Source of the DNA: Gemmatimonas sp.
GTDB taxonomy: Bacteria; Gemmatimonadota; Gemmatimonadetes; Gemmatimonadales; Gemmatimonadaceae
Direction of reading: 5' to 3'
Assembly: GCA_965279375.1 (NCBI GenBank)
Contig: OZ257156.1
Coordinates: forward strand, 1,280,001-1,344,000
DNA length: 64,000 bases
The translations under genes and the position numbers were made by a program. The notes under the pieces are model-generated. The model made no database searches, had not been told where the DNA came from, and was given only the letters and a program-made list of their open reading frames with translations. Below are positions 1 through 64,000 of this stretch, in pieces; within the stretch, counting starts at the first letter, position 1; each line of letters begins with the position of its first letter.

Positions 1-2
1 CG

Positions 3-497
3 TTCGGCTCGATCGCGCAGTGGCGCGCCCACCTCGAGCAAGAGCGCCCGGCGGTGGTGCATGCCTTCGCGACAGGCCAGCGCCTGGTCGATCAGTCCGC
101 CGGCGCCTTGGAGGCGCTGTGCCAGGAGGCGCGGACGCTCTGGGCGCGCGGCCCGAGCCCGATCCCCGCAGCGGCCGTGCTCCGGTATCGCTTTCATCTC
201 ACCGATGTGGTGCTCGATCTCGCAGCCATGCCGGAGCAGTCGGGGGCGACGGCGCTGCTCGCCAGTGCGGGCATGCGACAGGCCTGCGAGGCGCTGTGTG
301 CCATCGACCGGGCCTGGCTCCCCTCGATGCGACACCTGCTAGCCACGCTCGACGCCACGCATCCCGCGCTCGCGACCCTCGGGCGGCAGTGTGCGGAGGC
401 GGGGTTTCCGGCGACGCCTACGATCCAGTTCGTGGACGCGGTGCTCGCGCGCCTCGGTGGGCGACTCGACGCGTACGACACGACCGGGCCCGAGTAG
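3..497 (+). CDS. Hypothetical protein, 5'-truncated
   Basis: Frame of ORF 54..497 is open back to the window edge; ends before first attC. Confidence 0.6.
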   Translation, partial: FGSIAQWRAHLEQERPAVVHAFATGQRLVDQSAGALEALCQEARTLWARGPSPIPAAAVLRYRFHLTDVVLDLAAMPEQSGATALLASAGMRQACEALCAIDRAWLPSMRHLLATLDATHPALATLGRQCAEAGFPATPTIQFVDAVLARLGGRLDAYDTTGPE

Positions 498-538
498 GTG
501 GCCCGCAGGGCCCGACGGCCCAATCCCCGGGCGTTGGC

Positions 539-649
539 GCCTAACCTTGCGTTGCGCTTGACAGGGCCTTCAAGGAGGGCGGCCTGTTCGCTGGCGCTCA
601 CTGGCCGCAATTTATGGCAGGGCCCTGCAAGCGAACGCGCTCGTTAGAG
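539..649 (+). repeat. attC family A
   Basis: GCCTAAC...GTTAGAG. Confidence 0.92.
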
Positions 650-681
650 AGCCCGCCGCCCCCATATCCAAACATCGGCTC

Positions 682-1386
682 GTGAATCTCGCGGTCTTCG
701 ATATCGACGGCACGCTGCTCAACAATTTGGCCGGCGAAGACGCGTGCTACGCGCAGGCGTTACGCGAGCAGTTGGTGCTCGCCGACCTCGACACCGACTG
801 GGCCAGGTACGAGCACGTGTCCGACGATGGCATCGCGACCGAGGCCTATGCGCGGGCGTATGGATGCGCCCCGACCGCCGTGCTGCGGACCGCGACCATT
901 GATCGCTTCGTGGCGCTCCTGCGCGCGGCGCATGTGTCGTCCACGCCGCTGGTGGCCCTGCGCGGTGCGCATGAGGTGCTCACAGCGCTCCCGACGCGTG
1001 GGTGGGCGGTCGCGATGGCGACCGGGGCGTGGCGCCGCGCCGCGGAGTACAAGCTCGCGGCGGCGGGCCTGCCGGTCGCCGACGTGCCGCTGGCGACGTC
1101 GGAAGATGGTCCGGCCCGCGTCGCGATCGTTCGCAGTGCCATCGCGCGCGCGCAGGCCCAGTGGGGCGTCCCCGGGTTTGGCCGCGTGATCGCGATCGGC
1201 GATGGGGTCTGGGACGTGCGGGCGGCGCAGGCGCTCCACCTGCCGTTTGTTGGGGTAGGCGTCGGGCTATCGGTCGATCGCTTGCGCGGGGCCGGGGCAT
1301 CGCACATCATCGCGGACTACGCGGATCTTGCGGGCACGCTCCGAGTGTTCGACCAGGTGCAAGTTCCTCGCGTGGCGGCTCTCTAA
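682..1386 (+). CDS. HAD-superfamily hydrolase (copy 1)
   Basis: FDIDGTL motif I, IGDGVWD motif IV; stop in attC. Confidence 0.9.
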   Translation: MNLAVFDIDGTLLNNLAGEDACYAQALREQLVLADLDTDWARYEHVSDDGIATEAYARAYGCAPTAVLRTATIDRFVALLRAAHVSSTPLVALRGAHEVLTALPTRGWAVAMATGAWRRAAEYKLAAAGLPVADVPLATSEDGPARVAIVRSAIARAQAQWGVPGFGRVIAIGDGVWDVRAAQALHLPFVGVGVGLSVDRLRGAGASHIIADYADLAGTLRVFDQVQVPRVAAL

Positions 1387-1490
1387 CCCGGCGTTGCGGC
1401 AGACAGAGCCGTCAAGGACTGCTCCCTGTTCGCTGCGCTCACTGGTCGCATCCTATTGAAGGGCCCTGCTGCCGAACGCAATCGTTAGAT
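1381..1490 (+). repeat. attC family A
   Basis: CTCTAAC...GTTAGAT. Confidence 0.92.
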
Positions 1491-1530
1491 GTCAGTACGC
1501 CCAAAACAGCCCGGCGAGGAGGGATTAAGG

Positions 1531-2535
1531 GTGCGCCGCAGCCCAATCTTTTTGGCACTGCTCCTGACGGCGTGCGCCGCCCCAATGCATCGCACCAACG
1601 TGATCATTCCGAGCGGGACGGTCTCGCTCGCCGGGACCATCCTCCGTCCCGCGACTGCGGGCCGCCATCCGGCGGTGTTGCTGCTCCACGGTTCGGGCCC
1701 GGATGGGCGCTCGAATCCGTATTATGCGCAGGTGGCCGAGGCGTTCGTGCGCGGCGGCTTCGTCGTGTTGCTGTACGACAAGCGGGGCAGCGGGCAGTCG
1801 ACCGGCGATTGGCGGCGCGCGCCGTTCGACGCGCTGGTCGACGATGCCGCCGCGGCGACGCAGGTGCTCCGCCGGACGCCCGACGTCGATTCGACGCGCG
1901 TCGGCGTCTGGGGCGCGAGTGAAGGCGGGGCGATCGCCCCCGCCGTCGCGGCGCGTGTCCCGTCGCTGGCGTTCGTGATCATGCAGTCTGCGCCCGGCAG
2001 CTCGTTTGCCGCGCAGAATCTCTACCAGACGGCGGGCGAAGTCGCGGCGCTCACCCCGGACCCCACGATGCGCGAGGCGGCGATGCAGCTCCAGCGCGCG
2101 AAGCATGCGGTCGCGCGGGACGGAGCGGCCGCCTGGGCCGCCTACGCAACCGCGCGGCAGGCGGCGCTGGGTCGTCCGTATGCCGCGCTGGCCGCCCCCG
2201 CCACCCTGGACGATTGGTGGTGGGCGTGGTATCGCACGAAGCTGGACTACAGTCCGCTCCCGGCGCTGGCGCGGATCCGGTGCCCCGTGCTCGCGGTCTG
2301 GGGCGAGGCCGATCCGCTGATTCCCGTCGCCGCCAGCCACGCGGCGGTGGCGGAGGCCCGTCGGACGAGCGGTGCAGTGGGCGACTCGCTCGTGATCCTC
2401 GCCGGGGCCGATCATACGATGCGCGTGCCGGGCCTGCGCGGGTTCGTGCGCGGCGCGGGGCTCCGCCATCGGCCGGTCCACCTCAGGCTGCTGGTGGCGT
2501 GGGCGCGCGCCCGCGTGGCGGCCCCTGACACCTAA
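1531..2535 (+). CDS. Alpha/beta hydrolase, probable lipoprotein
   Basis: LLHGSG, YDKRGSG, GASEGG nucleophile elbow, GEAD, GADH; LTAC lipobox; start could be 1489. Confidence 0.88.
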   Translation: MRRSPIFLALLLTACAAPMHRTNVIIPSGTVSLAGTILRPATAGRHPAVLLLHGSGPDGRSNPYYAQVAEAFVRGGFVVLLYDKRGSGQSTGDWRRAPFDALVDDAAAATQVLRRTPDVDSTRVGVWGASEGGAIAPAVAARVPSLAFVIMQSAPGSSFAAQNLYQTAGEVAALTPDPTMREAAMQLQRAKHAVARDGAAAWAAYATARQAALGRPYAALAAPATLDDWWWAWYRTKLDYSPLPALARIRCPVLAVWGEADPLIPVAASHAAVAEARRTSGAVGDSLVILAGADHTMRVPGLRGFVRGAGLRHRPVHLRLLVAWARARVAAPDT

Positions 2536-2674: not shown

Positions 2675-3451
2675 ATGCTCGTTCACACGCGTCGAATCCT
2701 GGTGATCGTACTCGGTGTCTGTCTTTGGGCGGTCGGTCTGCCGACGCGGGCACTCGCGCAGCAGGCGGCCTTGCTCGGGACCGTCTTGGAGGACTCGACC
2801 GAGCGGCCGATCGTGAATGCCGAGATCGCCATCCCCGCGCTGCAGCGTCTGGTGCGCAGCGACTCGGTGGGCAACTTCAGCCTCAGCAGCATTCCGCCCG
2901 GCGTCTACCGCGTGACGGTGCGCGCCGTCGGCCGAGCTCCGCTGCAGGAGACGATCGCGTTTGGGACGGCCGGGCGGATTGAACGCGACTACCTCCTCGC
3001 CCGCGCCACGACGACGCTCGCGCCGGTCGACGTGACCGCCGATGCGTCGGTCGACGATGTACGCTTCGCCGACTTCCACGCGCGGCGGCGCCTCGGCACG
3101 GGGCGCTTCCTCACGCAAGACCTCTTGGCGCAGGCGGACGGCCGGAAGATGGCCGATGTGCTGGCGAGTCGCATTCCCGGATTGCGGAGCGTGTCCCTGG
3201 GCGGCACCCAAGGCGTCATGGTCAGTACGCGGGGCGTCATCAGCTTCCGCAATCAGCGGTGCTATGTGAAGGTCATGGTCGACCGCATGCTCCGATACAA
3301 TGGCAGTCCCGACCCGCTCTTTGACATCAACACCCTCGATCCGGCGACGATCGCGGGGGTGGAGTACTACACCACCGCGCAGGTGCCGGCCGAGTTCAAC
3401 GGCACCGGCACGCCGTGCGGCACGCTCGTCATCTGGACGCGCCTGCGCTAG
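2675..3451 (+). CDS. Secreted carboxypeptidase-regulatory-like domain + TonB plug-like protein (copy 1)
   Basis: Signal peptide, GTV..D...PI..A..G.F.L..G.Y.V pattern, C-terminal GVEYY...CGTLVIWTR. Confidence 0.8.
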   Translation: MLVHTRRILVIVLGVCLWAVGLPTRALAQQAALLGTVLEDSTERPIVNAEIAIPALQRLVRSDSVGNFSLSSIPPGVYRVTVRAVGRAPLQETIAFGTAGRIERDYLLARATTTLAPVDVTADASVDDVRFADFHARRRLGTGRFLTQDLLAQADGRKMADVLASRIPGLRSVSLGGTQGVMVSTRGVISFRNQRCYVKVMVDRMLRYNGSPDPLFDINTLDPATIAGVEYYTTAQVPAEFNGTGTPCGTLVIWTRLR

Positions 3452-3501: not shown

Positions 3502-3620
3502 ACCTAACCTCGCGTTGGTGCAGTCGGCCGCGCAACGGTGCGCCGTGTAACTGCGGCGCTGGCGCGCCTCCGTTCACGGCTGCCTATTTGAGCGGCCGCA
3601 GCACAACGCAATCGTTAGAT
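3502..3620 (+). repeat. attC family B
   Basis: ACCTAAC...gccgtgtaac...gttcacggc...GTTAGAT. Confidence 0.92.
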
Positions 3621-4330
3621 AGTCCCACCGCACGACACCGCACACGCAGGCTCCGCTCGGGGTGTCTGTGTTCGCCCGATGCGTCGACGGCGCGCGGTGC
3701 GCGTCGATCGCCCCGCGCCGGCAAGACCGCGCCGCAGCGGTTGGCCATCGTGCGTGGCCCCGTGGGTTGATGGTGGCGCGGGGTTGCGTGCGTGCGCGCT
3801 GACCGCGTCGTCGCGTGGTCGCCGATGTCGGGATCGTGGTGGCACGTCGCGTCGGCGTCGGTCAACGCGAGGGAACGTGCATGTCGCTGCGGCGCGTCCT
3901 CGCGGGCACCACCCCGGCGGAGGTGGCCGATGTACACGTCGGGTGCGCAGGGCTTCCGGCGTGCACGTCGTCGCGTCGGGGCTCGAGTGCGTTTCATGCA
4001 TCGCGTGCGTGCGCGCGCATTGCGTAATCGCGCGAGTGCGCGAGTGCGAGTGCGCGTGGGCGTGATGGCGCGTGGGCGTGATGGCGCGTGGGCGTGATGG
4101 CGCGTGGGCCGGGGACCAGCGGGTTCGGCGAACGGAGCGCCGTCGCCTGCGCGCAACGCCGTGCGCCACGCCAGCGCCGCCAGGCGAGCCCCGCCGGCGC
4201 CGCGTGGGTCCGGGCCGCCTCGTGTCCATGCCGCGCGGCCGTTGTGCGCGTCGCTCGCGCTGGCCCACGGGCGAGGCGCGGGCGACGGCGGACGGCGCGT
4301 CCGCTTACAAACGCCCTGGGACTATCTAAC
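3614..4330. other. Cassette without a convincing ORF
   Basis: Bounded by GTTAGATAGTCCCA / TGGGACTATCTAAC; only low-complexity Arg/Ala-rich ORFs. Confidence 0.6.
4052..4109. repeat. Tandem repeat GCGCGTGGGCGTGATG x3.6
   Basis: Read directly; preceded by GCGAGT-like iterations. Confidence 0.9.
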
Positions 4331-4444
4331 CTTGCGTTGGTGCTGACGGCCGCTCAGCGGTGCGCCGTGTAACGTCGCGGGCTGGCGCCCGCTCGTTCAC
4401 GGCTTCCTATTCTGAGCGGCCGCAGCACAACGCTATCGTTAGGT
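4324..4444 (+). repeat. attC family B
   Basis: ATCTAAC...GTTAGGT. Confidence 0.92.
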
Positions 4445-5326: not shown

Positions 5327-5358
5327 AGCCCGCCGCCCCCATATCCAAACATCGGCTC

Positions 5359-6400: not shown

Positions 6401-6637
6401 ATGCCCATGACGCCAGCCGACCTCCTCCAGCGTATCACGATCCGCCCCGAGCAATGCGGGGGCCGTCCGTGCATTCGGGGGATGCGGATCCGGGTGATCG
6501 ACGTCCTGGAGCTGTTAGCCGCCGGCGACTCGCAGGCACAAATCCTTGAGGACTATCCGTATCTCGAGGCGGACGATATCGCCGCGTGCCTGCTCTACGC
6601 GGCGCGGCGGTTGAACCATCCGAACGTCGCGGCGTAG
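6401..6637 (+). CDS. DUF433 antitoxin-like protein
   Basis: RITIRPEQCGGRPCIRGMRIRV...ILEDYPYLEADDIAACLLYAA. Confidence 0.92.
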   Translation: MPMTPADLLQRITIRPEQCGGRPCIRGMRIRVIDVLELLAAGDSQAQILEDYPYLEADDIAACLLYAARRLNHPNVAA

Positions 6638-6640
6638 CCG

Positions 6641-7009
6641 GTGATGGCGGACGCGCCGACGTCCGGGATCGTCTGGGTCGACGCGCAATTGCCGCCGGCA
6701 CTGGCCCGGTGGCTTCGGCAGACCCATGGGGTGGCCGCGTGGCACGTCGAGGAGGTCGAGCAGCTCGACGCGGATGATCCGGCGATCTTCGCCGCGGCCC
6801 GGAGTGGCCGGGCCGCGATCGTGGTGACGAAGGATGACGATTTTGTCGAGCTGGTCGAGCGACTCGGTCCCCCGCCACAAGTCGTGTGGGTCACGTGTGG
6901 GAACATCAAGAACGCTGAGTTGCGGGCGATCGTCCTGGAGGCCTGGCCGCGGGTGGCGGAACTGCTCGCGAGTGGCGAGCCGTTGGTGGAACTCGGGCGT
7001 CGCACGTAG
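6641..7009 (+). CDS. DUF5615 PIN-like toxin
   Basis: VDAQLPPALA...D..IF...VVTKDDDF...GN. Confidence 0.9.
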   Translation: MMADAPTSGIVWVDAQLPPALARWLRQTHGVAAWHVEEVEQLDADDPAIFAAARSGRAAIVVTKDDDFVELVERLGPPPQVVWVTCGNIKNAELRAIVLEAWPRVAELLASGEPLVELGRRT

Positions 7010-7855: not shown

Positions 7856-8323
7856 ATGAATAGCACATTCGAAGCAATCATCGCGTCGTTCGAACCGAAG
7901 CTCCAGCAACTCACGGCGATGCCGCTCTGTGATCCGCTTGCGCTGCCTGCCGATGCGCCCATTGCTGGCGTCTACGTTCTGTTCGAGAACGACGAGCCGC
8001 TGTATGTCGGACGCAGCAATCGGCTCCGGAAACGGCTAGGCAATCATTGTCGCGAAGGTGCGACGCACAAGATGGCGGCGTTCGCATTTCGACTGGCCAG
8101 AGTCGAGACAGGCAACCTCAAGGCCACCTACAGGCCCGAGGGGTCTCGGAGTGCGCTAATGAAGGATCCGACCTTCGCCCACGCCTTTGCTGAGGCGAAG
8201 TCGCGTATTCGTCGCATGCGTGTGCGGTACGTGGCCGAAGCCCAGCCAACACATCAAGCATTGCTCGAGATCTACGTTGCGATCGCGATGAGGACGCCGT
8301 TCAATGACTTCGAAACACACTGA
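7856..8323 (+). CDS. GIY-YIG nuclease family protein
   Basis: GVYVLF...LYVGRS..LRKRL..H, C-terminal E and FN. Confidence 0.85.
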   Translation: MNSTFEAIIASFEPKLQQLTAMPLCDPLALPADAPIAGVYVLFENDEPLYVGRSNRLRKRLGNHCREGATHKMAAFAFRLARVETGNLKATYRPEGSRSALMKDPTFAHAFAEAKSRIRRMRVRYVAEAQPTHQALLEIYVAIAMRTPFNDFETH

Positions 8324-8355
8324 GACGTTCTCTACTCCTGAACTCCTGTGGAGCT

Positions 8356-8910
8356 ATGGCAAGTATCCTCCCTCGGCTCGCCGAACTCAGTGAAGCGATC
8401 GACGAGAATCTCGCGAAGCATCGAGTGCTCCCCACGCTTGCCCTCCTTTACACTGCAATCGACGTCCTGGCGTCGCTAGAGCGAAGGGCGAATGAAGGCG
8501 TCCAGTCCGCGTTTGTGCGATGGACCGATGAGTTTCTGATCGCAGGTCAGACGCTCCCGTATTCAGCAATAGATCTCTACGCGGCCCGTTGTGGAATTCT
8601 ACATGCTTACTCGGCTGACTCAGACTTGGCGAGGAGAGGCAAGGCGAAGCCGATCCTGTACGCGTGGGGGCGCGCAAATGCAGATTTCCTCGCACATAGG
8701 ATTGCCGTCTCCGGCACGGCGGCAATCGGAATCCATCTAGATGATCTGGTGTCAGCGTTTCACCGGGCCGTGACCCGAATGCTAGACGTCATGGACGCAG
8801 CGCCCCTCAGGCGGGCCGGAATTGAGCACGCGGCGGACGCCTGGTTCGCCGATGTCGGGATAGGCGCTCTTGAGGCGGAGAAGGAAGATCTCCGTGGAGG
8901 CGATGTCTAA
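8356..8910 (+). CDS. Hypothetical protein with HEPN-like R-x4-H motif
   Basis: AIDVLASL...F..W...DLYAARCGILH; GGAG RBS; stop in attC. Confidence 0.7.
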   Translation: MASILPRLAELSEAIDENLAKHRVLPTLALLYTAIDVLASLERRANEGVQSAFVRWTDEFLIAGQTLPYSAIDLYAARCGILHAYSADSDLARRGKAKPILYAWGRANADFLAHRIAVSGTAAIGIHLDDLVSAFHRAVTRMLDVMDAAPLRRAGIEHAADAWFADVGIGALEAEKEDLRGGDV

Positions 8911-9190: not shown

Positions 9191-9484
9191 GTGATACGCA
9201 CCTTTGCCGATCTGGCCACCGAAGACCTGTTCAATGGCGTCGATAGCCGGCGGGCGCGGCAGGCGTGTCCGAACACGCTCTGGGCGGTGGTCGCGCGGAA
9301 GCTGACGCAGCTCAATCGCGTGCGCGAACTCCGAGAGCTGGCCATTCCACCCGGCAACCGGCTGGAAGCGCTCAAGGGATCACGGCGCGGGCAGCACAGT
9401 ATCCGCATCAACGATCAGTACCGGATCTGCTTCCGGTGGGAGGAAGGCCATGCCGACGCGGTCGAAGTCACGGACTACCACTAA
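9191..9484 (+). CDS. higB: HigB-family toxin
   Basis: PPGNRLEALKG.R.GQHSIRINDQYRICFRW...VEVTDYH. Confidence 0.95.
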   Translation: MIRTFADLATEDLFNGVDSRRARQACPNTLWAVVARKLTQLNRVRELRELAIPPGNRLEALKGSRRGQHSIRINDQYRICFRWEEGHADAVEVTDYH

Positions 9485-9497
9485 GTCGACGCCGTTG

Positions 9498-9812
9498 GTG
9501 CAGCGCCGCTTGCCCACGCATCGGCCCCCGACGCATCCCGGCGAGATGCTGCTCGAGGAATTCCTCAAGCCGCTCGGGCTGTCGCAGTCCGCGTTCGCCC
9601 TGCAGCTCGGCGTGTCGTTTCCGCGCCTGAACGAGGTGATCCATGCGAAGCGCAGCGTCACGCCGGATACGGCGTTGCGGCTCGCCCAGGTCACGGGCAT
9701 GAGCGCGGACTTCTGGCTCGGGCTCCAGCAGGACTGGGATCTGTGGCATGCGCTGCGCTCGAAGGAGGCCGCCCAGATCGCGCGCCTCAAGCCTTTGTCG
9801 CGCGCGAGTTAG
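9498..9812 (+). CDS. higA: HigA-family HTH antitoxin
   Basis: THPGEMLLEEFLKPLGLSQ...VTPDTALRLA...FWLGLQ; start approximate. Confidence 0.93.
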   Translation: MQRRLPTHRPPTHPGEMLLEEFLKPLGLSQSAFALQLGVSFPRLNEVIHAKRSVTPDTALRLAQVTGMSADFWLGLQQDWDLWHALRSKEAAQIARLKPLSRAS

Positions 9813-12134: not shown

Positions 12135-12473
12135 GTGACCGACGCGATCGACGCGCTGCTGGCCAGCGCCACCGGGTTCGACTGGGATGCGGGGAACGCC
12201 CCCAAGGTGCAGGCGCGCCACCAAGTGGATCCCGGCGAGTGTGAGCAGGCGTTCTTCGTGGATCCCTTCATTGTGGCCGCCGATGCGACGCACTCGCAGC
12301 GCGAAGCCCGCTGGTACGCGCTCGGCCGGACCTTCGCGAATCGATACCTGTATCTCGTCTTTACGATGCGCGGATCGCTGATTCGAGTGATCAGCGCGCG
12401 TCCCATGAACCGGAAGGAGCGCCGAGTCTATGTCCAAACCCAAGCACGTGAAGAAGGCGATCCCGCGCGCTAA
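12135..12473 (+). CDS. brnT: BrnT-family toxin
   Basis: FDWDAGN..K...H...E.R...LG...VFT.R...IRVISARPM.RKER. Confidence 0.92.
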   Translation: MTDAIDALLASATGFDWDAGNAPKVQARHQVDPGECEQAFFVDPFIVAADATHSQREARWYALGRTFANRYLYLVFTMRGSLIRVISARPMNRKERRVYVQTQAREEGDPAR

Positions 12474-12735
12474 GTCGGAGGAGGCGGAGCGCGAGTTTTG
12501 GGCGACTGCGGACTCCACCGAGTACGTCGACTGGACCGCGGCGCGTGCAGTCAGGTTTCCGCTGCTCAAGCCGTCCACAACGGCGATCTCCGTGCGGTTG
12601 CCGGACACGTTGCTGACGGAGCTCAAGATCCTCGCGAACGAGCGCGACGTGCCGTATCAGAGCTTGCTCAAGGTGTATCTCGCCGACCGTATCGCGACGG
12701 AGCGACGGCAACAGCGGCGCAAGCTCGAAGCCTAA
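12430..12735 (+). CDS. brnA: BrnA/CopG-like antitoxin
   Basis: EREFW...D..EY.DW...ISVRLP...VPYQSLLK. Confidence 0.88.
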   Translation: MSKPKHVKKAIPRAKSEEAEREFWATADSTEYVDWTAARAVRFPLLKPSTTAISVRLPDTLLTELKILANERDVPYQSLLKVYLADRIATERRQQRRKLEA

Positions 12736-12868
12736 CCTTGCGTTGCTGCAGCAAACGCTGCCGGCATCGGCGTGGCGACCGCGGGGCGTTCGCTGTAACC
12801 TCACAGGGCGGTGCGAACGCCCCGCTTGCGTCCGTGTGGGCGTTTGCTGCAGAACGCGAGCGTTAGAG
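12730..12868 (+). repeat. attC, atypical long singleton (139 bp)
   Basis: GCCTAAC...GTTAGAG; inner stem gcggggcgttcgc/gcgaacgccccgc. Confidence 0.88.
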
Positions 12869-13094: not shown

Positions 13095-13331
13095 ATGCCG
13101 ACCGTGCTGCGGGTGGAGGGGTATCGGTTCTTCTTCTACAGCAATGAGCGGGGCGAGCCCGCCCACATTCATGTAGAACAGGCCGAGCGGTACGCCAAGT
13201 TCTGGCTCGCCGATGTCACCCTGGCCGAATCCCGCGGTCTTCGGAGTGCGGAGCTCTCGGCGCTCCGTCGGCTGGTGTTTGCACATCGCATTCAGCTTCA
13301 GGAGGCGTGGGATGGGCACTTCAGCCGTTAA
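13095..13331 (+). CDS. DUF4160 protein (TA component, copy 1)
   Basis: MPTV....GYRFFFYSNE..EP.HIHV...AKFWL. Confidence 0.92.
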   Translation: MPTVLRVEGYRFFFYSNERGEPAHIHVEQAERYAKFWLADVTLAESRGLRSAELSALRRLVFAHRIQLQEAWDGHFSR

Positions 13332-13554
13332 GATCGAGCCGCTGGTCGTCGCGGTCACCTGCTCGGACGTCGCCCTCCGGGTCGAACTCGCGGATGGGCG
13401 CGAGATCGTCGCCCCCTTAGAGTGGTTCCCGCGCCTGCGCGACGCGACCGCAGCGCAGCGCGCGAATTGGCGCCCGATCGGCGGCGGCGTCGGCATGCAT
13501 TGGCCGGAGCTGGACGAAGATCTCTCGGTCGCCGGGCTCCTCGCGACGCACTGA
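13312..13554 (+). CDS. DUF2442 protein (TA component, copy 1)
   Basis: L.DGR....PL.WFPRL..AT...G.G.HW.ELDEDLSV.GLL. Confidence 0.92.
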   Translation: MGTSAVKIEPLVVAVTCSDVALRVELADGREIVAPLEWFPRLRDATAAQRANWRPIGGGVGMHWPELDEDLSVAGLLATH

Positions 13555-19784: not shown

Positions 19785-19895
19785 ACCTAACCTTGCGTTG
19801 CGCTTGACAGGGCCGCGACGGATGGCGGCCTGTTCGCTGGCGCTCACTGGCCGCAATTTATGGAAGGGCCCTGCAAGCGAACGCGCTCGTTAGGT
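19785..19895 (+). repeat. attC family A
   Basis: ACCTAAC...GTTAGGT. Confidence 0.92.
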
Positions 19896-19995
19896 GGCTC
19901 CACGACGGGCGCGATGGCCCCAGCCAGCGCGATGGCGCCGATCGCGCTGCCGGCGCGTTAGCGTGCCAGTGACGGCCCGCGTACATTTGCGTGCT

Positions 19996-46150: not shown

Positions 46151-46379
46151 AGATTGGCTGCGCAATGAGGTGGCTCAGGCGTGCTATTGGACAACGAATA
46201 GTGGAGCCAACTCTCAGAAGTGGCCAGTAGATTGACCGGTCGCCTTAGCGAAACACAGCGCTACCGCACAGGGTGGCTTGGATTCCCTACAGGATTACTC
46301 GTCTGGTGTTCGTCCCTTCGGAGATCTCAGTCTCGGGCCAGATGCGCATTCGGGGGGAGCCAGCACGTCGCCGCCCGCG

Positions 46380-46525: not shown

Positions 46526-47902
46526 TCATCTCGCAATGTGCTGTCCGTCGTCGCTACCGCTCAGAAGCTCTCGGAGGTTTGATGCGGGCACAAATGCGTG
46601 AGCTTTCCCGATCTTGCGCTGACTAAGCAGGCCCTGCGCGACCAGCTTCATCAAGTCACTTCTCGCAGTTTCGTAGCTTACCCCGTGCGAGATCTTGTGT
46701 GATTCCACCGAGTATCGCGATAGAGGCTTCTTCAGTGCATGATTGATCAGCGCAAGCTGTCGCTGGTTGAGCTCTGCGTTCACAGCCGATGCTCGCCGTA
46801 CTATTTCCTCTGCTTCATGAATCTCCGCCGCCTTTCGCGCTAGGTACTCGTGCAAATCTCCTATCGCCCGGAGGAGTACCCGCATCTGGTAAAGTAAGAA
46901 GTACGTAGCATCATTTTCGTCGCTCTCCGTATACAGGTATGCCCTCGCGTACTGAGCACGTGCCTTTCGAAGAATGCGTGAGATCGACACGTACTCGCAG
47001 AGCCAGTATCCTTGCCGCGCCATTGACCAGTAGAAGAGCGCGCGGGCCGTTCGTCCGTTCCCATCAACGAACGGATGATCGTATGCAAGCCAAAAGTGCA
47101 GAAGGATTGCTCGTACGGCCGGCGGCACGAACTCGGTCGGCTCAGCTCCATTCGCGAACTCGCACATCTTCTGCATCCGCTCCTCGAGCTCATGCGCAGG
47201 AGGCGGCGTATGTAAGCGTGTTCCAGTTTCGTCCTCGACTACAATGTCTTCCTCGGCGCGCCTAAACCTTCCAGCCGCGTCCGGGTCATCCAATGCGCCG
47301 TCGGTTAGCTTCCTCTGAAGTTCCTTGACGATCTCAGGCGTGAGAGGGCTTCCGATGAACTGCCGCACGTACAGCATGCCCTGAAAGTTGTTCAGGATCA
47401 TTCGTTCGCTTCGATTTCGTGGTGCGCGACCCTCCTGAATCATTGCTTTGGCGACCTTTCTGGTCGTTGAAGCACCTTCGAGCTGACTTGAGGTAATCGC
47501 TTCCTCGACAATCGACTTGAACAGGTACGTATCTCGCGTTGCAGGGTTCGTGACCTGCTCACTACCCTGAATGTTCCCTCCCGCATTGCGGTCGATCTGA
47601 TGCAGCATTTCTAGTGCGGGATTCGGAAGCGCGTACTGGAACGGTCTACCCTGCACGTCCTTCAGCGGGAGTCGGCGATACAGTGCCCGCCTCGCCAGCT
47701 TTACTGCGATCCACTGTTCCTCGGCAGTGAACTGCTTTGATGGGGGCGCGTGCCTGAATGTGTCCCAGTGGCGGTATTTCCCGCCTGGCGCCGCTCCGAA
47801 CCCCTCTCGCATTAGATCGTCGAATCGGTCGGTTCCATGCGTGCCAGAGAGCAGGTCGCTCAGCAGCTTTCCGAACGTCGGCGGTGGAACGGGCAACTTC
47901 AT
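46526..47902 (-). CDS. Fic-family protein with C-terminal wHTH (inverted)
   Basis: HPFVDGNGRTAR; SSQLEG inhibitory helix; VSYETARSDL..L. Confidence 0.93.
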   Translation of the reverse strand: MKLPVPPPTFGKLLSDLLSGTHGTDRFDDLMREGFGAAPGGKYRHWDTFRHAPPSKQFTAEEQWIAVKLARRALYRRLPLKDVQGRPFQYALPNPALEMLHQIDRNAGGNIQGSEQVTNPATRDTYLFKSIVEEAITSSQLEGASTTRKVAKAMIQEGRAPRNRSERMILNNFQGMLYVRQFIGSPLTPEIVKELQRKLTDGALDDPDAAGRFRRAEEDIVVEDETGTRLHTPPPAHELEERMQKMCEFANGAEPTEFVPPAVRAILLHFWLAYDHPFVDGNGRTARALFYWSMARQGYWLCEYVSISRILRKARAQYARAYLYTESDENDATYFLLYQMRVLLRAIGDLHEYLARKAAEIHEAEEIVRRASAVNAELNQRQLALINHALKKPLSRYSVESHKISHGVSYETARSDLMKLVAQGLLSQRKIGKAHAFVPASNLRELLSGSDDGQHIAR

Positions 47903-48382: not shown

Positions 48383-48438
48383 GGTGCGCAGGCATTGGTT
48401 GATTCTTGGTGTCTTCTACGTCTCTCACTGAGGCATTC

Positions 48439-49443
48439 GTGCCAGCATTCTGGATGGTTCGTGCAGGCGAAGCCGGTCGGATCGTGGCGGACTTCGAGCG
48501 TCTGAATCTCGTCGCGGTCGGCTGGTCTGCCGTGGGCGATCTGTCGCCATTTGCCTCGGTCGATGCGATGCGCGCGGCTGTTGCGCGCGCATATCCTGAG
48601 TCGAAGCCCGGCAACGTTGTCATCTCCGGAAGCACGCTCATGAAGTTCCGGAGCGTCTTTGCGCAGGGCGACCGCGTCGTCACGTACGATCCACCAGCAC
48701 GTGAATACCTGCTGGGCACCGTGAGCGGTGACTACGCCTTCCGACCTGGACTCATCCCGGACTATCCGCACACCCGCTCCGTTCGATGGAGCGGACGCGT
48801 GAGTCGCGATAGGCTGTCCGCGAGTGCCAAGAACACTCTCGGCAGTATCGTCACGCTGTTCCAGCCCAGCGACGAAGCCTTAGCTGAGCTCGAAGCACTG
48901 CTGAGCGGGAAGCCAGCACCGGTTGCGCCGCTCGTGATCGAAGAGGAGGAGAGCGCCGAGCTAAACGAGGTCCGACTGGACGCGGTCGCTAAGGCCCAGG
49001 AATTCCTGAAGGATCGACTGCTGCGGCTGTCTCCTGAGGAAATGGAGTCGTTGGTCGCGTCGCTACTGCGCGCGATGGGATACAAGGCCAGAGTCACTCA
49101 GAAGGGTCCGGATGGTGGCCGCGATGTCATCGCGTCACCCGACGGCCTCGGTTTTCAATCGCCGCGCATCATCGCGGAGGTGAAGCACCGCCCGCGGGAA
49201 CGGATGGGGCCTGAGCAGATCCGTAGCTTCCTAGGAGGGCTCCGCAGTGGTGACTGCGGGCTGTACGTCAGTATCGGCGGCTATACGCGCGAGGCGCGCT
49301 ACGAGGCAGACCGTGCGACCGTGCCCTTAACTCTCGTCACGCTCGACGATCTGGCGAATCTGATCGTGGAACACTACGAGTCGTTCGATGCCGAGGGCCG
49401 GACGCTCGTGCCTCTCGTCAAGGTGTACTGGCCGGTGTCGTAG
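48439..49443 (+). CDS. Mrr-like restriction endonuclease
   Basis: WMVRAG..VGW..GD N-domain; E.LVA.LL.AMGY...DGGRD...EVKH...GLYVS.GG. Confidence 0.9.
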   Translation: MPAFWMVRAGEAGRIVADFERLNLVAVGWSAVGDLSPFASVDAMRAAVARAYPESKPGNVVISGSTLMKFRSVFAQGDRVVTYDPPAREYLLGTVSGDYAFRPGLIPDYPHTRSVRWSGRVSRDRLSASAKNTLGSIVTLFQPSDEALAELEALLSGKPAPVAPLVIEEEESAELNEVRLDAVAKAQEFLKDRLLRLSPEEMESLVASLLRAMGYKARVTQKGPDGGRDVIASPDGLGFQSPRIIAEVKHRPRERMGPEQIRSFLGGLRSGDCGLYVSIGGYTREARYEADRATVPLTLVTLDDLANLIVEHYESFDAEGRTLVPLVKVYWPVS

Positions 49444-51127: not shown

Positions 51128-51445
51128 ATGACGCCCTCGATCCTCACCCGCGCCGACGTGGAAGCCCGCGTGGCCGCCGCCCGCCCGGAGATTCTCCGGT
51201 TGGGCGTGCAGCGTCTGGCGCTTTTCGGCTCCGTGCAGCGGAACGAAGCGCGCGGCGATAGCGACGTGGACGTGTTGGTCGAGTTCGCCGCCGGCCAGAA
51301 GACCTTCGACCATCTCTTGGCGTTGGGGGAGCTGTTGGAAGGAGCGCTGGGCCACCGGGTGGAACTCGTCACAGCCGAATCGCTCTCCCCGTACCTGCGT
51401 CCCTACATCCTCACCGAAGCCCAGGATGTCCTTCGCGCCGCGTGA
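51128..51445 (+). CDS. MNT nucleotidyltransferase antitoxin
   Basis: LFGS..R......SDVD.LVEF. Confidence 0.93.
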
Positions 51446-51764
51446 GTATCTGCGGCATATCGCGGACGAAGCGGCCTATCTCGAGCAGGCGACGAGTGGG
51501 GTGAGTCGGGACGCGTTCCTCGAGGATCCGACGCTGCAGCGCGCGTGCGTGCGCAGCTTCGAGATCATCGGCGAGGCGACCAAGAAGGTGCCCGCGGAGC
51601 TGCGGGCGGCGCACCCCGACGTGGCGTGGCGCGCGATGGCGGGCATGCGAGATCGCTTGATTCACGACTACTTCGGCGTGGATCTCGACCTCGTGTGGGA
51701 CGTGATTCAAGAGAAGATCCCGACGCTCCGCCGCCAGATCGAGCGGATTCTCGCCACGGTCTAA
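51426..51764 (+). CDS. HEPN (DUF86) toxin
   Basis: EIIGEA.K...W....[14 protein letters not shown]...VW. Confidence 0.93.
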
Positions 51765-56572: not shown

Positions 56573-56604
56573 AGCCCACCGCCCCCACATCCAAACATCG
56601 GCTC

Positions 56605-58229: not shown

Positions 58230-58251
58230 GGCGGGCGGCAAATCACTGATC

Positions 58252-59015: not shown

Positions 59016-60677
59016 ATGAAGATTCTCAGTGCGCTCTTGCTGACTTCACTCATTGTCTTATCGTCGCCGTCCGGTGCGCAGCAACCACCTAGTCGTACGT
59101 GTCAGTTCAACGCTGGACCACGCGCGGGACAGAGACAGTCGTACCCCCAAGCGCAGCCGATCCCGGTCGGCTCGCCGTGCCAGGATGGTCAGGGCAGCAC
59201 GGGACTCGCCATCGCGGAGCAAGGTCCAAACCCGATCCCTGGCGGCGGTTCAGGCCAGCTGACCCGGACATGTCAGTTCAATGCTGGACCACGCACGGGA
59301 CAGCGACAGTCGTACCCACAAGCGCAGCCGATCCCGGTCGGCTCGCCGTGCCAAGATGGTCAGGGCAGCACGGGACTCACCGTTGCGGAGCAAGGTCCGC
59401 CCCCCGTCCCCGGCGGCGGTTCAGGCCAGCTGACCCGGACATGTCAGTTCAATGCTGGACCACGCGCGGGACAGCGACAGTCGTACCCACAAGCGCAGCC
59501 GATCCCGGTCGGCTCGCCGTGCCAAGATGGTCAGGGCAGCACGGGACTCACCGTTGCGGAGCAAGGTCCGCCCCCCATCCCCGGCGGCGGTTCGGGCCAG
59601 CTGACCCGGACGTGTCAGTTCAACGCTGGACCACGCGCGGGGCAAACGCAGTCGTACCCAGAAGCGCAGCCGATCCCGGTCGGATCGCCGTGTCAGGATG
59701 GTCAGGGCAGCACGGGACTCGCCATCGCGGAGCAAGGTCCAACCCCGATCCCCGGCGGCGGTTCGGGCCAGCTGACCCGGACGTGTCAGTTCAACGCTGG
59801 ACCACGCGCGGGGCAAACGCAGTCGTACCCAGAAGCGCAGCCGATCCCGGTCGGATCGCCGTGTCAGGATGGTCAGGGCAGCACGGGACTCGCCATCGCG
59901 GAGCAAGGTCCAACCCCGATCCCCGGCGGTGGTTCAGGCCAGCTGACCCGGACGTGTCAGTTCAGTACTGGACCGCGCGCGGGGCAGACGCAGACGTACC
60001 CCCAAGCACAGCCGATCCCAGTCGGGTCTCCATGCCAAGATGGTCAAGGCAGCACGGGGACAGCCGTGCCAGACAAGCAACTGACGTCCGCAACACAAAC
60101 CGCGACCTGTCCGGCGGGATTTAGCTGTGCATTCATTCCCGCCACGCAGCTACCCCAGATCAAACCACAACTTACCATGGTCTGGTGCTGGGTCGCATCC
60201 GCCCAAGCGATTTTTCAATACTATGGTCACGATGTAGACCAAGCGACGATCGTATCGCAGGTGCTCGGCCAACCGATTGTCACCGCAGCAAACGCGCAGA
60301 TGATGGTGTCAATGCTTAATCGGCAGTACGTCGATAAGCAGGGCGTTCCGTTTGCTGTTCGCACTCCTTTGCTATGGGACTCCTTCTCCTGGCTCTCGGC
60401 GAACCCGGCCTTTATGGCTAACATCGGCGCGCAACCGCTAAACAATCGCGGAGTTCGTGACGCAATAGCTGCAGGGCGCCCGCTTCTTATTGGCACGAAG
60501 AATCACGCAATGGTGCTCGTCGGCATGATCTACTCAGATGTGAACGGCAACATCATCCCTCGAGCAGGCTACGTACTCGATCCAGCGCCAACCGCCTTCG
60601 GGGGCGCAGTCGGCCTAAGGCAACTTAGCGCAGGAGAAATGACCGCGTACTTTGCCGCAGACGTCACCGTTCAGTAG
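59016..60677 (+). CDS. Secreted protein: 6 Cys-containing repeats + papain-like cysteine peptidase domain
   Basis: Signal peptide; 57-aa repeats; Q....WCWVAS, HAMVLVG, VLDP. Confidence 0.85.
   Translation: MKILSALLLTSLIVLSSPSGAQQPPSRTCQFNAGPRAGQRQSYPQAQPIPVGSPCQDGQGSTGLAIAEQGPNPIPGGGSGQLTRTCQFNAGPRTGQRQSYPQAQPIPVGSPCQDGQGSTGLTVAEQGPPPVPGGGSGQLTRTCQFNAGPRAGQRQSYPQAQPIPVGSPCQDGQGSTGLTVAEQGPPPIPGGGSGQLTRTCQFNAGPRAGQTQSYPEAQPIPVGSPCQDGQGSTGLAIAEQGPTPIPGGGSGQLTRTCQFNAGPRAGQTQSYPEAQPIPVGSPCQDGQGSTGLAIAEQGPTPIPGGGSGQLTRTCQFSTGPRAGQTQTYPQAQPIPVGSPCQDGQGSTGTAVPDKQLTSATQTATCPAGFSCAFIPATQLPQIKPQLTMVWCWVASAQAIFQYYGHDVDQATIVSQVLGQPIVTAANAQMMVSMLNRQYVDKQGVPFAVRTPLLWDSFSWLSANPAFMANIGAQPLNNRGVRDAIAAGRPLLIGTKNHAMVLVGMIYSDVNGNIIPRAGYVLDPAPTAFGGAVGLRQLSAGEMTAYFAADVTVQ
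59097..60060 (+). repeat. Intragenic 171-bp tandem repeat, 5 full + 1 partial
   Basis: TGTCAGTTCA recurs at 171-bp period (59100, 59271, ...). Confidence 0.93.
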
Positions 60678-60876: not shown

Positions 60877-61001
60877 AGCCGCATCGTATGTTGATGTCAA
60901 GGCAGCGTCCGGTCGGATCTTTGGTGTTTGTCCGACGCGAGCCGCGCGTCCGGTGTGCAGCGGCCCAAAGCGTATCCGTCGAGATTCGTGAGGCCTCGCG
61001 C

Positions 61002-61029
61002 TTGCCGGGATGTACGGTGTATGTACATT
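61002..61029 (+). promoter_or_regulatory. Putative brnTA promoter/operator
   Basis: TTGCCG-16-TACATT; ATGTAC-N7-GTACAT palindrome. Confidence 0.65.
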
Positions 61030-61035
61030 CCGAAT

Positions 61036-61326
61036 ATGACCGCGCCGGACTTTACGTGGGACCCGAAGAAGGATGCCGCGAACCAGCGCAAGCATGGGGT
61101 CGCCTTTGAGGAGGCGCGCACGGTCTTCGAGGATGATGAGGCGTTGCTCATCCCGGACCCGGCGCATTCGACCGGGGAAGAGCGCTTCGTCCTGCTTGGC
61201 CTGAGTGCGGCGCTGCGCGTGCTCGTGGTGGTGCACTGCGAGCCCGTCGCGGACCAGATCCGGATCATCTCGGCTCGGAAAGCCGATCCCAGCGAACGTC
61301 GGACCTATGCCCGGAGACGCGCCTGA
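61036..61326 (+). CDS. brnT: BrnT-family toxin
   Basis: FTWDPKK...N.RKHGV.FEEA..VF.D...D..HS..EERF...IRIISARKA. Confidence 0.93.
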   Translation: MTAPDFTWDPKKDAANQRKHGVAFEEARTVFEDDEALLIPDPAHSTGEERFVLLGLSAALRVLVVVHCEPVADQIRIISARKADPSERRTYARRRA

Positions 61327-61556
61327 TGAAAGCCCGCTATGACTTCACCGCCGCCACGAAGAACCCGTACGCGAAACGGCTCAAGCAGTCGGTCACGATC
61401 CGCCTCGATGTGTCCACGGTCGCTTACTTCAAGGCGCTGGCCGAGGAGACCGAGCTCCCGTATCAGAGTCTCATCAATCTGTATCTGCGGGATTGCGCGG
61501 CGTCGGGCCGTCGGCCGGCACTGACGTGGCGTCCCACGCGGGCCCGCGCGAGCTGA
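61326..61556 (+). CDS. brnA: BrnA-family antitoxin
   Basis: MK..YDF....KNPY...LK..VTIRLD....YFK.....PYQSLINLYL; TGATG coupling. Confidence 0.9.
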   Translation: MKARYDFTAATKNPYAKRLKQSVTIRLDVSTVAYFKALAEETELPYQSLINLYLRDCAASGRRPALTWRPTRARAS

Positions 61557-61719: not shown

Positions 61720-61868
61720 AGCCTCGCACGTTTCTGGTCGGATGGATGATCGCTTGATCGCACATCCGCGTTCTCTTTGCAGGGCCGCGTTGGCTAGCCC
61801 GCGTCGGCTGGCGTACCATTGCTCAGTGCCGCGGACATCGCGGCTCGGTCCTTCTCTTCGGGGTGCTG

Positions 61869-62603
61869 ATGTTCGACTCCATTGGTGGCTCCACAAATCG
61901 CCGTGACTTCCTCCGACAGGGCGGCGTCGCCGGTGCCCTGGCGATGTTTCCGGCGGGACAGGCGAGTGCCGCGGAATCGCTAACGTCCGATCCCGGCATG
62001 ACGTCGCGGGCGCTGCGGCCCGACGCGCCCGACGAGCACGGCCCCGCGGCTGGGACGCTCTCCGCCGCGGACCGCACGTGGGACCTGTCGTGGGTCAAGT
62101 CCGTGGGCCGGGCGAAGGACAAGGCCCTCATCGACGCGCCCGGCGTCGACGGCTGGGCGCTCGACATTGCCCAGCGCTACCTCGACGGGTGCGATGCGGT
62201 GTACGGCCGTGAGAAGCACGACGCGCGGGTCGTGCTCAACATTCGCACGCGGGCGATTCCGATTGCGATGTCGGATGCGCTCTGGGCGCGGTTCGCGCTG
62301 GGCGCCGAGTACGAGGTCAAGGATTCGCGCACAAACGAGAACGCCACGCGTAACCCGTTCCTCGCGCGGACGGATGCCGGGTCGTTGCCGTACCTGCTGG
62401 GGCGCGGTGCCATCGTGCTCGTGTGCGACTTCGCAATGGGCCATCTGGCGACCCGACTCGCCACCAAACGCGGCGTCACCGCCGACGCGGTGCACGAGGA
62501 GCTGCTGGCCGGACTCATCCCCGGGGCGATCCCCATGCCGTCTGGCATGTTCGGGCTGGCGAAGGCGCAGAACGCGGGGTGCGCCTTCATCAGCACGACG
62601 TAG
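61869..62603 (+). CDS. Tat-exported protein, DsrE-like C-terminus
   Basis: NRRDFL twin-Arg; RG...LVC..A...LIPG....PSG......AQ..G. Confidence 0.8.
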   Translation: MFDSIGGSTNRRDFLRQGGVAGALAMFPAGQASAAESLTSDPGMTSRALRPDAPDEHGPAAGTLSAADRTWDLSWVKSVGRAKDKALIDAPGVDGWALDIAQRYLDGCDAVYGREKHDARVVLNIRTRAIPIAMSDALWARFALGAEYEVKDSRTNENATRNPFLARTDAGSLPYLLGRGAIVLVCDFAMGHLATRLATKRGVTADAVHEELLAGLIPGAIPMPSGMFGLAKAQNAGCAFISTT

Positions 62604-62689
62604 GTCTCTAGACGCTGTGCATTCGGACGCGCTCGACTACGAGGCGACGCGGGACGCGCCCGTGCGTTGGGATCGTGCGCAGAACGGCT

Positions 62690-62800
62690 CGCTAACCGTG
62701 CGTTGCGCTTGACAGGGCCGCTAGGGATGGCGGCCTGTTCGCTGGCGCTCACTGGCCGCAATTTGTGGAAGGGCACTGCAAGCGAACGCAATCGTTAGAT
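62690..62800 (+). repeat. attC family A
   Basis: CGCTAAC...GTTAGAT. Confidence 0.92.
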
Positions 62801-62952
62801 GGCGGCTCAGAGCGTGGTGTGATCGCGAGCACGTCGAGCGAGATTGGTGTTGGAGTCGTCGCGAGATTTCGCACGGGTCGTGCTCGACAAATCGCGCTAG
62901 AGTGTTTCGCGAACGCGTTCCCAACATCGTGCGGTCCATTGGGAGGTGTGCA

Positions 62953-63249
62953 ATGTCTGAGATGCCGGGTTCGCCGCATTGGGCGGCGTCGTCGGAAGGT
63001 CGGGTCCTCCGCGTCGTCGGGGCCCTGATCGCGGGGATTGATCTGGTGATCGTGTGGTCAGAGCTGCGCGCGGGACAGGCGGTGCCCTGGACCGCGTGGG
63101 CGCGTCCGCTCTGGATGGTGGCGCTCGTCGTGGGCGCGGATCCACGGTTCGCGCGGCGGTGGCCGACGCGACAGCCCGTCACGTGGATGGGGCTCGCCAT
63201 CTTCGGGATGCTGTACCTCGTGGCACGCGTAGCGACGCGCGGCTCGTAG
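62953..63249 (+). CDS. Small 3-TM membrane protein (copy 5)
   Basis: Close paralog of 7286. Confidence 0.8.
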   Translation: MSEMPGSPHWAASSEGRVLRVVGALIAGIDLVIVWSELRAGQAVPWTAWARPLWMVALVVGADPRFARRWPTRQPVTWMGLAIFGMLYLVARVATRGS

Positions 63250-63393
63250 TCCGTCGGGACGCACCGTCGGCCTTCCGCGAATACTCGCCCGTACCGCGAT
63301 GGGATCCGTGTGACGGTATCCAGTTCGCGTTCCCGCGGCCTCGCGTCGCACAACCGGCCCGTGTGGCCGCGAGACCGCGCGCCGCATGCCGCC

Positions 63394-63512
63394 ATCTAAC
63401 CTCGCGTTGGTGCAGTCGGCCGCTCAGCGGTGCGCCGTGTAACTGCGGCGCTGGCGCGCCTCCGTTCACGGCTTCCTATTTGAGCGGCCGCAGCACAACG
63501 CAATCGTTAGGC
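63394..63512 (+). repeat. attC family B
   Basis: ATCTAAC...GTTAGGC. Confidence 0.92.
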
Positions 63513-63541
63513 CGAACTCAGACATTGCCAAGGAGGACAAT

Positions 63542-64000
63542 CTGATTGAGATCAAGCTGTCGGGCGCATCGTGGCGCTATGACCCGGAGGCACCCTTAGG
63601 AAAGGCTGGTGGATTTGGCGCAGTCTTTAGAGGACTATCAGAGTCCGGCGAAACGGTCGCCGTCAAGCGCCTGCACCTTAGCGCAAACGAGGCTGCGCAT
63701 CGCGAATTGAGCATCGCGCGCGACCTCGCCAATCGAGCTCTTGAGAACGTCGTGCCAGTCCTAGACTCAGGCCAAGATGCAGAGTCGGATGCATACTTCA
63801 TTGTTATGCCACTCGCCGAGTGCAACCTCGCCGAGTTTGTCGCGATTCACGGCAAACTCGAGGAATCCGAGGCGATCAGCATTCTGCTTCAGATCGTTAG
63901 AGGTCTGGAGTCCGTGTCGCATATCGTGCATAGGGATCTCAAGCCTGCAAACGTTCTACTTCGCGAGGGTCGCTGGAACGTAGCCGACTTCGGCATCGCG
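63542..64000 (+). CDS. Hanks-type Ser/Thr protein kinase, 3'-truncated
   Basis: Hand translation: GKAGGFGAVF, VAVK, HRDLKPANV, DFGIA; AAGGAGG RBS then CTG. Confidence 0.9.
   Translation, partial: MIEIKLSGASWRYDPEAPLGKAGGFGAVFRGLSESGETVAVKRLHLSANEAAHRELSIARDLANRALENVVPVLDSGQDAESDAYFIVMPLAECNLAEFVAIHGKLEESEAISILLQIVRGLESVSHIVHRDLKPANVLLREGRWNVADFGIA

Follow-up and report, generated by a model that had tools for sequence, protein, structure and literature searches.

A 125-site chromosomal integron with a same-strand integrase gene in a Gemmatimonadaceae genome

What kind of element fills a 64,000-nt stretch of the genome listed as Gemmatimonas sp. (GCA_965279375.1, contig OZ257156.1, positions 1,280,001 to 1,344,000; hereafter the window), in which integron attC recombination sites seem to follow one another from edge to edge, and does an integrase belong to it? 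To our knowledge, nearly all that has been learned about super-integrons derives from Vibrio and Xanthomonas. Our analysis of the host genome (G000, a single contig of 5,309,734 nt with 65.4% GC and 99.95% completeness, in which the window is G000:C1:1280001-1344000) makes us confident that the window forms the central part of a complete integron on the chromosome of a member of the Gemmatimonadaceae; this integron has 125 attC sites, an attI-like site, and an intact intI gene on the same strand, and it likely serves as a low-turnover cassette library.

The original prediction, made from the letters of the window alone, had described co-oriented attC sites from edge to edge, 59 in 64 kb, belonging to two conserved families, and both descriptions held. 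All 59 sites lie on the plus strand, one per 1.08 kb; 58 were found by a motif scan and one, the 96-nt outlier in Table 1, was added by a hidden Markov model (HMM) built from the array's own sites. Forty-two sites are 109-113 nt long (family A) and 15 are 119-121 nt (family B), with single outliers of 139 and 96 nt. Genome-wide, the model gave 137 hits at E up to 1, and the whole array comprises 125 plus-strand sites between G000 1248091 and 1395551; counted from the attI crossover it spans 148 kb (1247265-1395551) and, with intI, makes up 2.8% of the genome. The clustering is not due to chance, as the left-end motif occurs 125 times on the plus strand (111 of these between 1.20 and 1.40 Mb) versus 7 times on the minus strand. 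As also predicted, no transposase or housekeeping operon was found among the window's open reading frames scanned against Pfam, which were 63 and a few more out of 348 raw frames, mostly overlapping shadow frames.

The bottom strands, whose folding had been singled out as a check, do fold as attC hairpins, with two extrahelical bases, AAC/GTT triplets, and 5- and 6-nt spacers, and 89 of 96 proximal sites have stems with at most one mismatch. Across 70 aligned bottom strands, 97.2% of cells pair, versus 81.9% when shuffled and 23-41% when slid; two-sided changes affect 239 cells versus 69.7, and 16 of 26 pairs vary on both sides, a covariation contrast that kinship among the aligned sequences inflates. 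The strongest test of attC identity is what we call the own-end rule: if recombination takes place at G|TT, then the R'' box should match the start of its own cassette and not that of the neighbor, and it does so in 98 of 104 cases, compared with 18 of 104 for the next cassette.

Absence of intI from the genome would have made this a cluster of attC sites lacking integron-integrases (CALIN), and the left side of the window had been proposed as the place to look for intI and attI; both are there. The intI gene (G000 1245997-1246980, plus strand, without stops) lies 33-34 kb left of window position 1, and its product scores 384 bits against TIGR02249 (cut-off 265), the only IntI over the cut-off in G000, with control genomes falling below it. 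The protein carries the catalytic residues R141, K166, H272, R275, H298, and Y307 and aligns end to end, I2 region included, with the Vibrio cholerae integrase VchIntIA (2A3V). The attI crossover, G|TTAGGT, is at G000 1247265, 285 nt past the intI stop; its GTT 7-mer matches the R'' of cassette 1, and an AAT-N4-GTT arrangement is common, by sequence, to 9 relatives. Thus intI is co-oriented with the cassettes and attI sits at its 3' end, with an ArsC-like gene and a dicarboxylate symporter gene upstream on the same strand. Because an intact IntI and a candidate attI adjoin the array, we regard it as a complete integron and not a CALIN. Public contigs from four runs span the head of the array with few differences, and intI, attI, and cassettes 1-2 fall on one contig (20.6 kb long in two of the runs) that shows none; the four runs represent one sample, probably the source sample, and are not independent support.

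If the element operates as known integrons do, IntI would bind the folded attC bottom strand and cut between G and TT, the cassette would be freed as a circle and reinserted at attI just behind intI, and newly inserted cassettes would push older ones outward; expression would probably rely on upstream read-through and the cassettes' own promoters. Exact duplicates and a lone cassette may be indirect signs of IntI-catalyzed excision and integration. Thirty-five cassettes group into 14 families, and five cassette pairs are 100% identical, attC included, with different neighbors. The lone cassette (locus L193, G000 about 923740-925040) carries the array's attC family and its own 13-nt matched 5' end, encodes a protein with a serine-hydrolase-like motif as read by eye, and looks like an insertion at a secondary site. 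Other intact and eroded attC sites are scattered at G000 109649, 316903-318423 (with a pair near 317-318 kb), 673929, 904839-911824, 2289095, and 3703112-3705220. Joints in the public contigs were not counted as excision events, their sides being 30 nt or less and fitting repeats.

The array also changes along its length. The GTTA motif is intact in 96 of the first 97 sites versus 12 of the last 28, marking an attC erosion that sets in near cassette 96 and would lock old genes into position. Low-GC cassettes number 33 among the first 97 and 2 among the last 28, and the last of the 12 toxin-antitoxin (TA)-like cassettes in the whole array is number 95, just before erosion starts. Cargo of the distal array consists of hydrolases, serine beta-lactamase-fold proteins, regulators, and one IS481 element, the transposase of which lies inside cassette 102 (G000 1363602-1364834), about 20 kb past the right edge of the window.

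A further feature is the position of the array relative to replication. The GC, keto, and oligomer skews all change direction near 1,237,600 (minimum; the maximum is at 3,772,688), and dnaA is at G000 1,198,767, which together place the intI/array start 8-47 kb from the predicted origin. Sites resembling parS lie at 1,238,116 and 1,238,264, with a perfect DnaA box at 1,198,653. The cassettes run with the fork, such that attC bottom strands form the predicted leading-strand template, and this orientation would limit excision, as in Vibrio. Loot 2017 (PMC5371416) found it in 25 of 30 sedentary chromosomal integrons, demonstrated its limiting effect on excision, and reported larger arrays in this orientation. 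Two relatives, G050 and G151, share the G000-like orientation if their origin is at dnaA, but their arrays are 0.4-0.5 Mb from it.

The host had been guessed to be Gemmatimonadota-like, and that guess can be narrowed: DnaA identity and the IntI clade place it in the Gemmatimonadaceae. Five genomes were compared by DnaA: identity is 94% with a named Gemmatimonadetes metagenome-assembled genome (MAG), 95% over a partial match of 351 residues with a MAG named as Gemmatimonas, 84% with a MAG of the Gemmatimonadales, and 68-70% with two further members of the Gemmatimonadaceae. The nearest relatives of its IntI are Gemmatimonadota proteins at 63-70% identity, and in a quick tree of 103 rows, the root of which we do not trust, it groups with two same-genus IntIs in a Gemmatimonas-containing clade (SH-like approximate likelihood ratio test, SH-aLRT, 97). 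On these comparisons, the genus is probably Gemmatimonas.

Several observations weigh against our reading of the array as a complete integron that still turns over slowly. Near the integration platform, the only promoter-like hit is on the wrong strand and at chance level, with no sense-strand sigma70-like site and no consensus cassette promoter (Pc), and a weak test found no LexA-like or shared SOS box upstream of intI. The G000 attI L box departs from the family consensus, and attI has only degenerate traces of the upstream palindrome kept by Gemmatimonas-clade relatives. That the distal 30 cassettes include no TA-like ones does not reach significance (0/30 vs 12/95, p = 0.07). One relative, G185 (three contigs), appears opposite in replication orientation. 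The genes flanking the G000 array are common to no relative tested, many of which have little upstream DNA, so that the locus is not shown to be fixed across species and its proximity to the origin is so far peculiar to G000. Finally, chimeric attC sites occur in cassettes 48, 67, 96, and many distal ones, and because their two arms come from different subtypes, they point to homologous exchange within attC as a second route of change. Two of them are in the window (16738-16847 and 35617-35727), and many lie beyond G000 1355000.

The best surviving alternative draws on several of these points: the integron could be real but frozen, with intI intact yet silent, or attI worn out, and recent change driven by homologous recombination between near-identical attC sites. 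The degenerate attI L box and upstream motifs, the missing Pc and SOS box, and the chimeric arms all fit this scenario. However, the IntI frame and catalytic residues are intact, the ends of cassette 1 still match over 12 nt at attI, most proximal stems are sound, and the five identical duplicates are single cassettes with exact G|TT boundaries and new neighbors, as would fit recent IntI action; we consider a frozen integron unlikely. Rather less probable still is a recently acquired mobile island that brought a ready-made array from another lineage. The nonsyntenic flanks would suit an island, as would the scarcity of close paralogues of cassette genes outside the array (two cassette proteins at 72%, the rest at most 41%), but its IntI clusters with those of the same genus, the closest matches to the attC family come from the host family, and one cargo protein (19894..20727) has three best Atlas clusters that are mostly Gemmatimonadota. 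Moreover, the array merges gradually with the chromosome at its distal end, eroded copies of attC are found in other parts of the genome, and no mobility genes flank the array apart from the one internal IS481, making an island very improbable. The notion that the sites are palindromes akin to repetitive extragenic palindromic (REP) sequences or bacterial interspersed mosaic elements (BIME), or an assembly artefact, can be set aside with near certainty even though high GC eases hairpin formation and the two strands of many family A sites have similar folding energies, as palindromes are already refuted by the own-end rule and the adjacent IntI, besides the triplets, the spacers, the two same-arm bulges, and the covariation, and an artefact is countered by the contig support from the same sample.

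We compared the recombination signals of the array with those of other arrays. On the bottom strand, C is the first extrahelical base in 96/96 intact proximal G000 sites, in 51/51 sites of a Gemmatirosa record, and in 27/27, 15/15, and 15/15 sites of three other relatives; class 1 controls have G. This base has been described as almost exclusively G, with a mild effect of G-to-C change (2.7-fold less integration, 1.2-fold more deletion; Bouvier 2009, PMC2727003), while C raised excision for three IntIs and few natural cases were known (Larouche and Roy 2011, PMC3053210), and given such minor effects, C in place of G does not exclude integron membership. It is also common in Acidobacteriota, Myxococcota, and other loci, divergent ones included, and is thus not unique to the Gemmatimonadota lineage. 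A link between the flipped-out C and the co-oriented layout was rejected, with C occurring in the divergent arrays L066, L093, and L025. On the protein side, VchIntIA Y210, one of five residues contacting the base, corresponds to Asp at residue 215 of the G000 IntI, and the position is not Tyr in 23/28 Gemmatimonadota IntIs vs 6/74 others (a hand count in which kin are not independent); C is also found beside IntIs that retain the tyrosine. Both the extrahelical base and the IntI residue that contacts it have thus changed across the lineage, a change that may have functional meaning.

Cassette ends in G000 are complementary over a mean of 11.25 nt (108 cassettes; median about 12), well past the 7-nt R box, with shuffled end pairs giving about 0.28 per position beyond position 10, and in 95 cassettes this pairing makes the circular form fold with a predicted energy 8.6 kcal/mol lower on average. 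Vaisvila 2001 reportedly described "variable inverted repeats". We rejected long end pairing as a special trait of this array: four distinct class 1 cassettes pair over 11-12 nt, with aadB, qacL, and aac(6')-Ib at 12 in a best-pair search, and 14 other arrays have medians of 6-12 nt, characteristic of each array. The Gemmatirosa record (L181) has 56 attC-model hits over 31 kb; the ends of 32/55 of its cassettes pair over exactly 11 nt, and pairing is below chance at position 12. Such long pairing may have arisen because a full recombinase arm is selected for, or because cassettes originate through a copying step; the R box is described as 7 nt in PMC7439510 and PMC5027507, the available excerpts of which do not mention longer end pairing.

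The cargo of the array falls into two classes. Cassette GC content is bimodal, with 35 of the 125 cassettes below 0.60, none at 0.60-0.62, and 90 above, and the 35 low-GC cassettes include all but one of the 18 that are defence-like (17/18); the defence-like labels are our own, from Pfam and PADLOC, and some are weak. Strong matches include a fused PARIS AriAB (632 bits), PD-Lambda-2 B (437 bits) and C, a PDC-S02 Mrr nuclease (289 bits), and SoFic (142 bits), and Shedu-like, TIR, GmrSD+HEPN, HD-CE, and SRA-HNH domains are also present. Both attC families are used by both GC classes; since the low-GC defence-like genes carry these local families, they were likely packaged within the host lineage. 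TA cassettes had been expected to be interspersed in the array, and the window indeed has nine TA-like cassettes, one an identical copy of another. Sedentary chromosomal integrons have been described as defence biobanks stabilized by TA cassettes (PMC12614218), and by analogy this array likely stockpiles anti-phage and TA genes as the Vibrio super-integron does. The features of the window are listed in Table 1.

Table 1. Location and content of features in the window
Feature	Position	Strand	Remarks
Array segment	1..64000	+	Cassettes 30-89 of the 125-site array; 51 kb more array past right edge
attC, family A example	539..649	- (bottom = folding strand)	Extrahelical bases C and mostly T, 6 bp apart
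attC, family B example	3502..3620	-	R/L boxes as family A; terminal structure differs
Outlier attC, 139 nt	12730..12868	-	
Outlier attC, 96 nt	22147..22242	-	
HAD-hydrolase cassette	644..1484	+	Five copies, 92-99.9%: also 5321-6161, 16001-16841, 41395-42235, 56567-57407
Carboxypeptidase-regulatory and TonB plug protein	2675..3451	+	Copies 10747-11523, 35762-36538
Cassette without recognizable gene, kin of cassettes 5 and 9	3615..4438	+	14-nt terminal complementarity; possibly gene-less
TA-like pair, DUF433 and DUF5615/PIN	6401..7009	+	
GIY-YIG nuclease-like gene and unknown partner	7856..8910	+	Low GC
HigB-like toxin and HTH antitoxin	9191..9812	+	
BrnT toxin and CopG antitoxin	12135..12735	+	
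TA-like pair, DUF4160 and DUF2442	13095..13554	+	Identical copy 33207-33666
Protein without name	19894..20727	+	Gemmatimonadota-rich Atlas clusters
Pentapeptide-repeat and Mrr nuclease	20861..22075	-	Antisense; low GC
TIR-Mrr gene and PDC-M36A-like partner	22320..23696	+	Low GC
BrnT and BrnA	25262..25889	+	
Addiction-module antitoxin and ParE	33850..34496	+	
PARIS-type fused AriAB	39076..41169	+	Full-length match; low GC
HD-CE and HSP90-like ATPase protein	43550..46165	-	Antisense; low GC
Fic protein, best match SoFic	46526..47902	-	Antisense; low GC
Mrr-family nuclease (PDC-S02)	48406..49443	+	
Minimal nucleotidyltransferase and HepT pair	51128..51764	+	
Repeat protein with signal-peptide-like start	59016..60677	+	Six near-identical 57-aa Cys-containing repeats (171-nt DNA repeat); weak C39/papain-like C-terminal match
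BrnT and BrnA/CopG	60928..61556	+	
Protein with twin-arginine-like motif	61863..62603	+	No Pfam family

Beyond the tabulated features, a PD-Lambda-2-like cassette at L010:16669-19368 combines three genes, a HigB-like toxin and the B and C components noted above. Low- or mid-GC cassettes having long open frames and no informative family match (window 36727-38922, 49609-50860, and 54028-55275; L009:10259-12223; L011:2486-4974) are candidates for unknown defence systems. An antisense cassette gene at L009:14534-15550 (minus strand) matches Pfam Beta-lactamase2 at 180 bits, and more serine beta-lactamase-fold genes, with a BlaI/M56 pair, are found in the distal array. High-GC cassettes are richer in GC than the host average (68% vs 65%) and poor in A on the top strand (14%). 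Three related cassettes, number 34 (window 3615-4438) and numbers 5 and 9 (L009:12357-13141 and L009:16854-17633), have no recognizable gene and no relatives that we could find; their ends match over 14 nt, and they share conserved terminal motifs capable of long-range pairing. Numbers 5 and 9 still contain a long open frame, the meaning of which is doubtful; as proteins, the three gave no Pfam hit, 40% protein vs 68% DNA identity, and low Atlas recognition. A structured RNA family was considered for them and not supported, the window having no Rfam hit, the folding z-score being -2.5, and the covariation term for three sequences being unfavorable; 300 family genomes yielded no match over the full length, and metagenomes none to the motifs.

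Integron signals also occur elsewhere in the family, in which an IntI over the cut-off occurs in 141/251 genomes and attC-model hits in 83/120 (tallies including two unpublished genomes, G034 and G007, on which no single claim rests). At most 31 attC candidates were scored per genome in the latter tally, which therefore does not measure array size. Of 17 relatives taken, one had too little downstream DNA, and intI is co-oriented in all 16 others; nine of the 17 were picked blind to attC position, eight of which have the co-oriented layout. The DNA compared lies mostly downstream of intI. Several relatives have 20 or more sites in 20 kb. In five relatives of the Gemmatimonas clade (L098, L161, L017, L029, and L014), attI is preceded by a palindrome at a distance of about 150 nt and by a second, related motif at about 45 nt; the two resemble attI half-sites and may be accessory IntI sites. 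In a tree with biased sampling and an unreliable root, the co-oriented IntIs lie closer to the Xer outgroup, with the divergent ones in nested positions.

We conclude that the G000 array is a new large sedentary chromosomal integron with a known same-strand layout and lineage-specific quirks. What is new is its origin proximity in an orientation predicted to limit excision, co-orientation throughout the relatives, the C/tyrosine change, the low-GC defence cargo, and the distal attC erosion. It is a Vibrio-sized array in a distant, abundant, and little-studied phylum, and finding the same design rules there (replication orientation, TA cassettes, and defence cargo) suggests that these rules are general. 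Some 18 low-GC cassettes that carry no defence label may encode new anti-phage systems, the IntI/attC pair is a natural one without the conserved G and its tyrosine contact, the intact-to-eroded gradient offers a view of cassettes turning into fixed genes, and the matched ends of about 12 nt in over 100 cassettes are relevant to the question of how cassettes arise. More speculatively, and as a tentative possibility only, the Gemmatimonadaceae might be a second Vibrionaceae: a family with large resident integrons throughout, its own code (C for G, the tyrosine lost), and a cassette pool partly insulated from clinical integrons, in which the unannotated low-GC cassettes form an untapped anti-phage library and the end pairing, 9-12 nt long and specific to each array, preserves a trace of cassette formation.

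Large arrays had been thought not to be well characterized in this phylum. They are not unseen: integrons are listed for Gemmatimonadota in PMC8618304, and Neron 2022 (PMC9024848), in its text and Table S3, gives a Gemmatirosa kalamazoonensis element of 79 attC, its supplement adding 3 attC in G. aurantiaca, 1 attC and a 3-site CALIN in strain TET16, and none in G. phototrophica. No paper characterizing the Gemmatirosa element, and none on a Gemmatimonas integron and attC, was found in the literature searched, a search that left most subscription journals outside. The Gemmatirosa integron is like that of G000 in its family, its large array, its co-oriented intI (58% identical), its extrahelical C, and its lost tyrosine; however, it is on a 1.1-Mb secondary replicon, its attC sites are shorter (about 96 nt), and its end pairing breaks off sharply after 11 nt, whereas the G000 array is larger and on the main chromosome.

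Same-strand, or inverted, integrases are known from Treponema and others (PMC4889954, PMC3575428), and G000 shares their arrangement, its intI oriented as the attC sites with attI at its 3' end. The group is paraphyletic in PMC4889954, so that the inverted integrase denotes a layout rather than a clade; the available excerpts of those two papers do not name Gemmatimonadota, and the G000-type layout spans the whole family. The original prediction of a sedentary chromosomal integron like those of Vibrio and Xanthomonas was right as to type, since the array is chromosomal and its 125 homogeneous attC sites far exceed the threshold of >10 given in PMC9024848, but the layout is not that of Vibrio because intI is co-oriented and attI is at its 3' end. 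Compared with the Vibrio cholerae integron (VchIntIA and the Vibrio cholerae repeat, VCR), G000 also differs in having C, not G, as the first extrahelical base, Asp at the Y210 equivalent, two attC families, an array beside the predicted origin, and no SOS box seen. Gene-less cassettes have been described from Vibrionaceae superintegrons (10.1101/2023.11.21.568050), and cassettes 5, 9, and 34 likewise have no recognizable gene. Both the V. cholerae and G000 integrons exceed 100 cassettes, have long attC sites that are homogeneous, and carry defence cargo as well as TA cassettes spread along the array (PMC5371416, PMC12614218), and both have their bottom strands on the leading-strand template, as predicted for G000.

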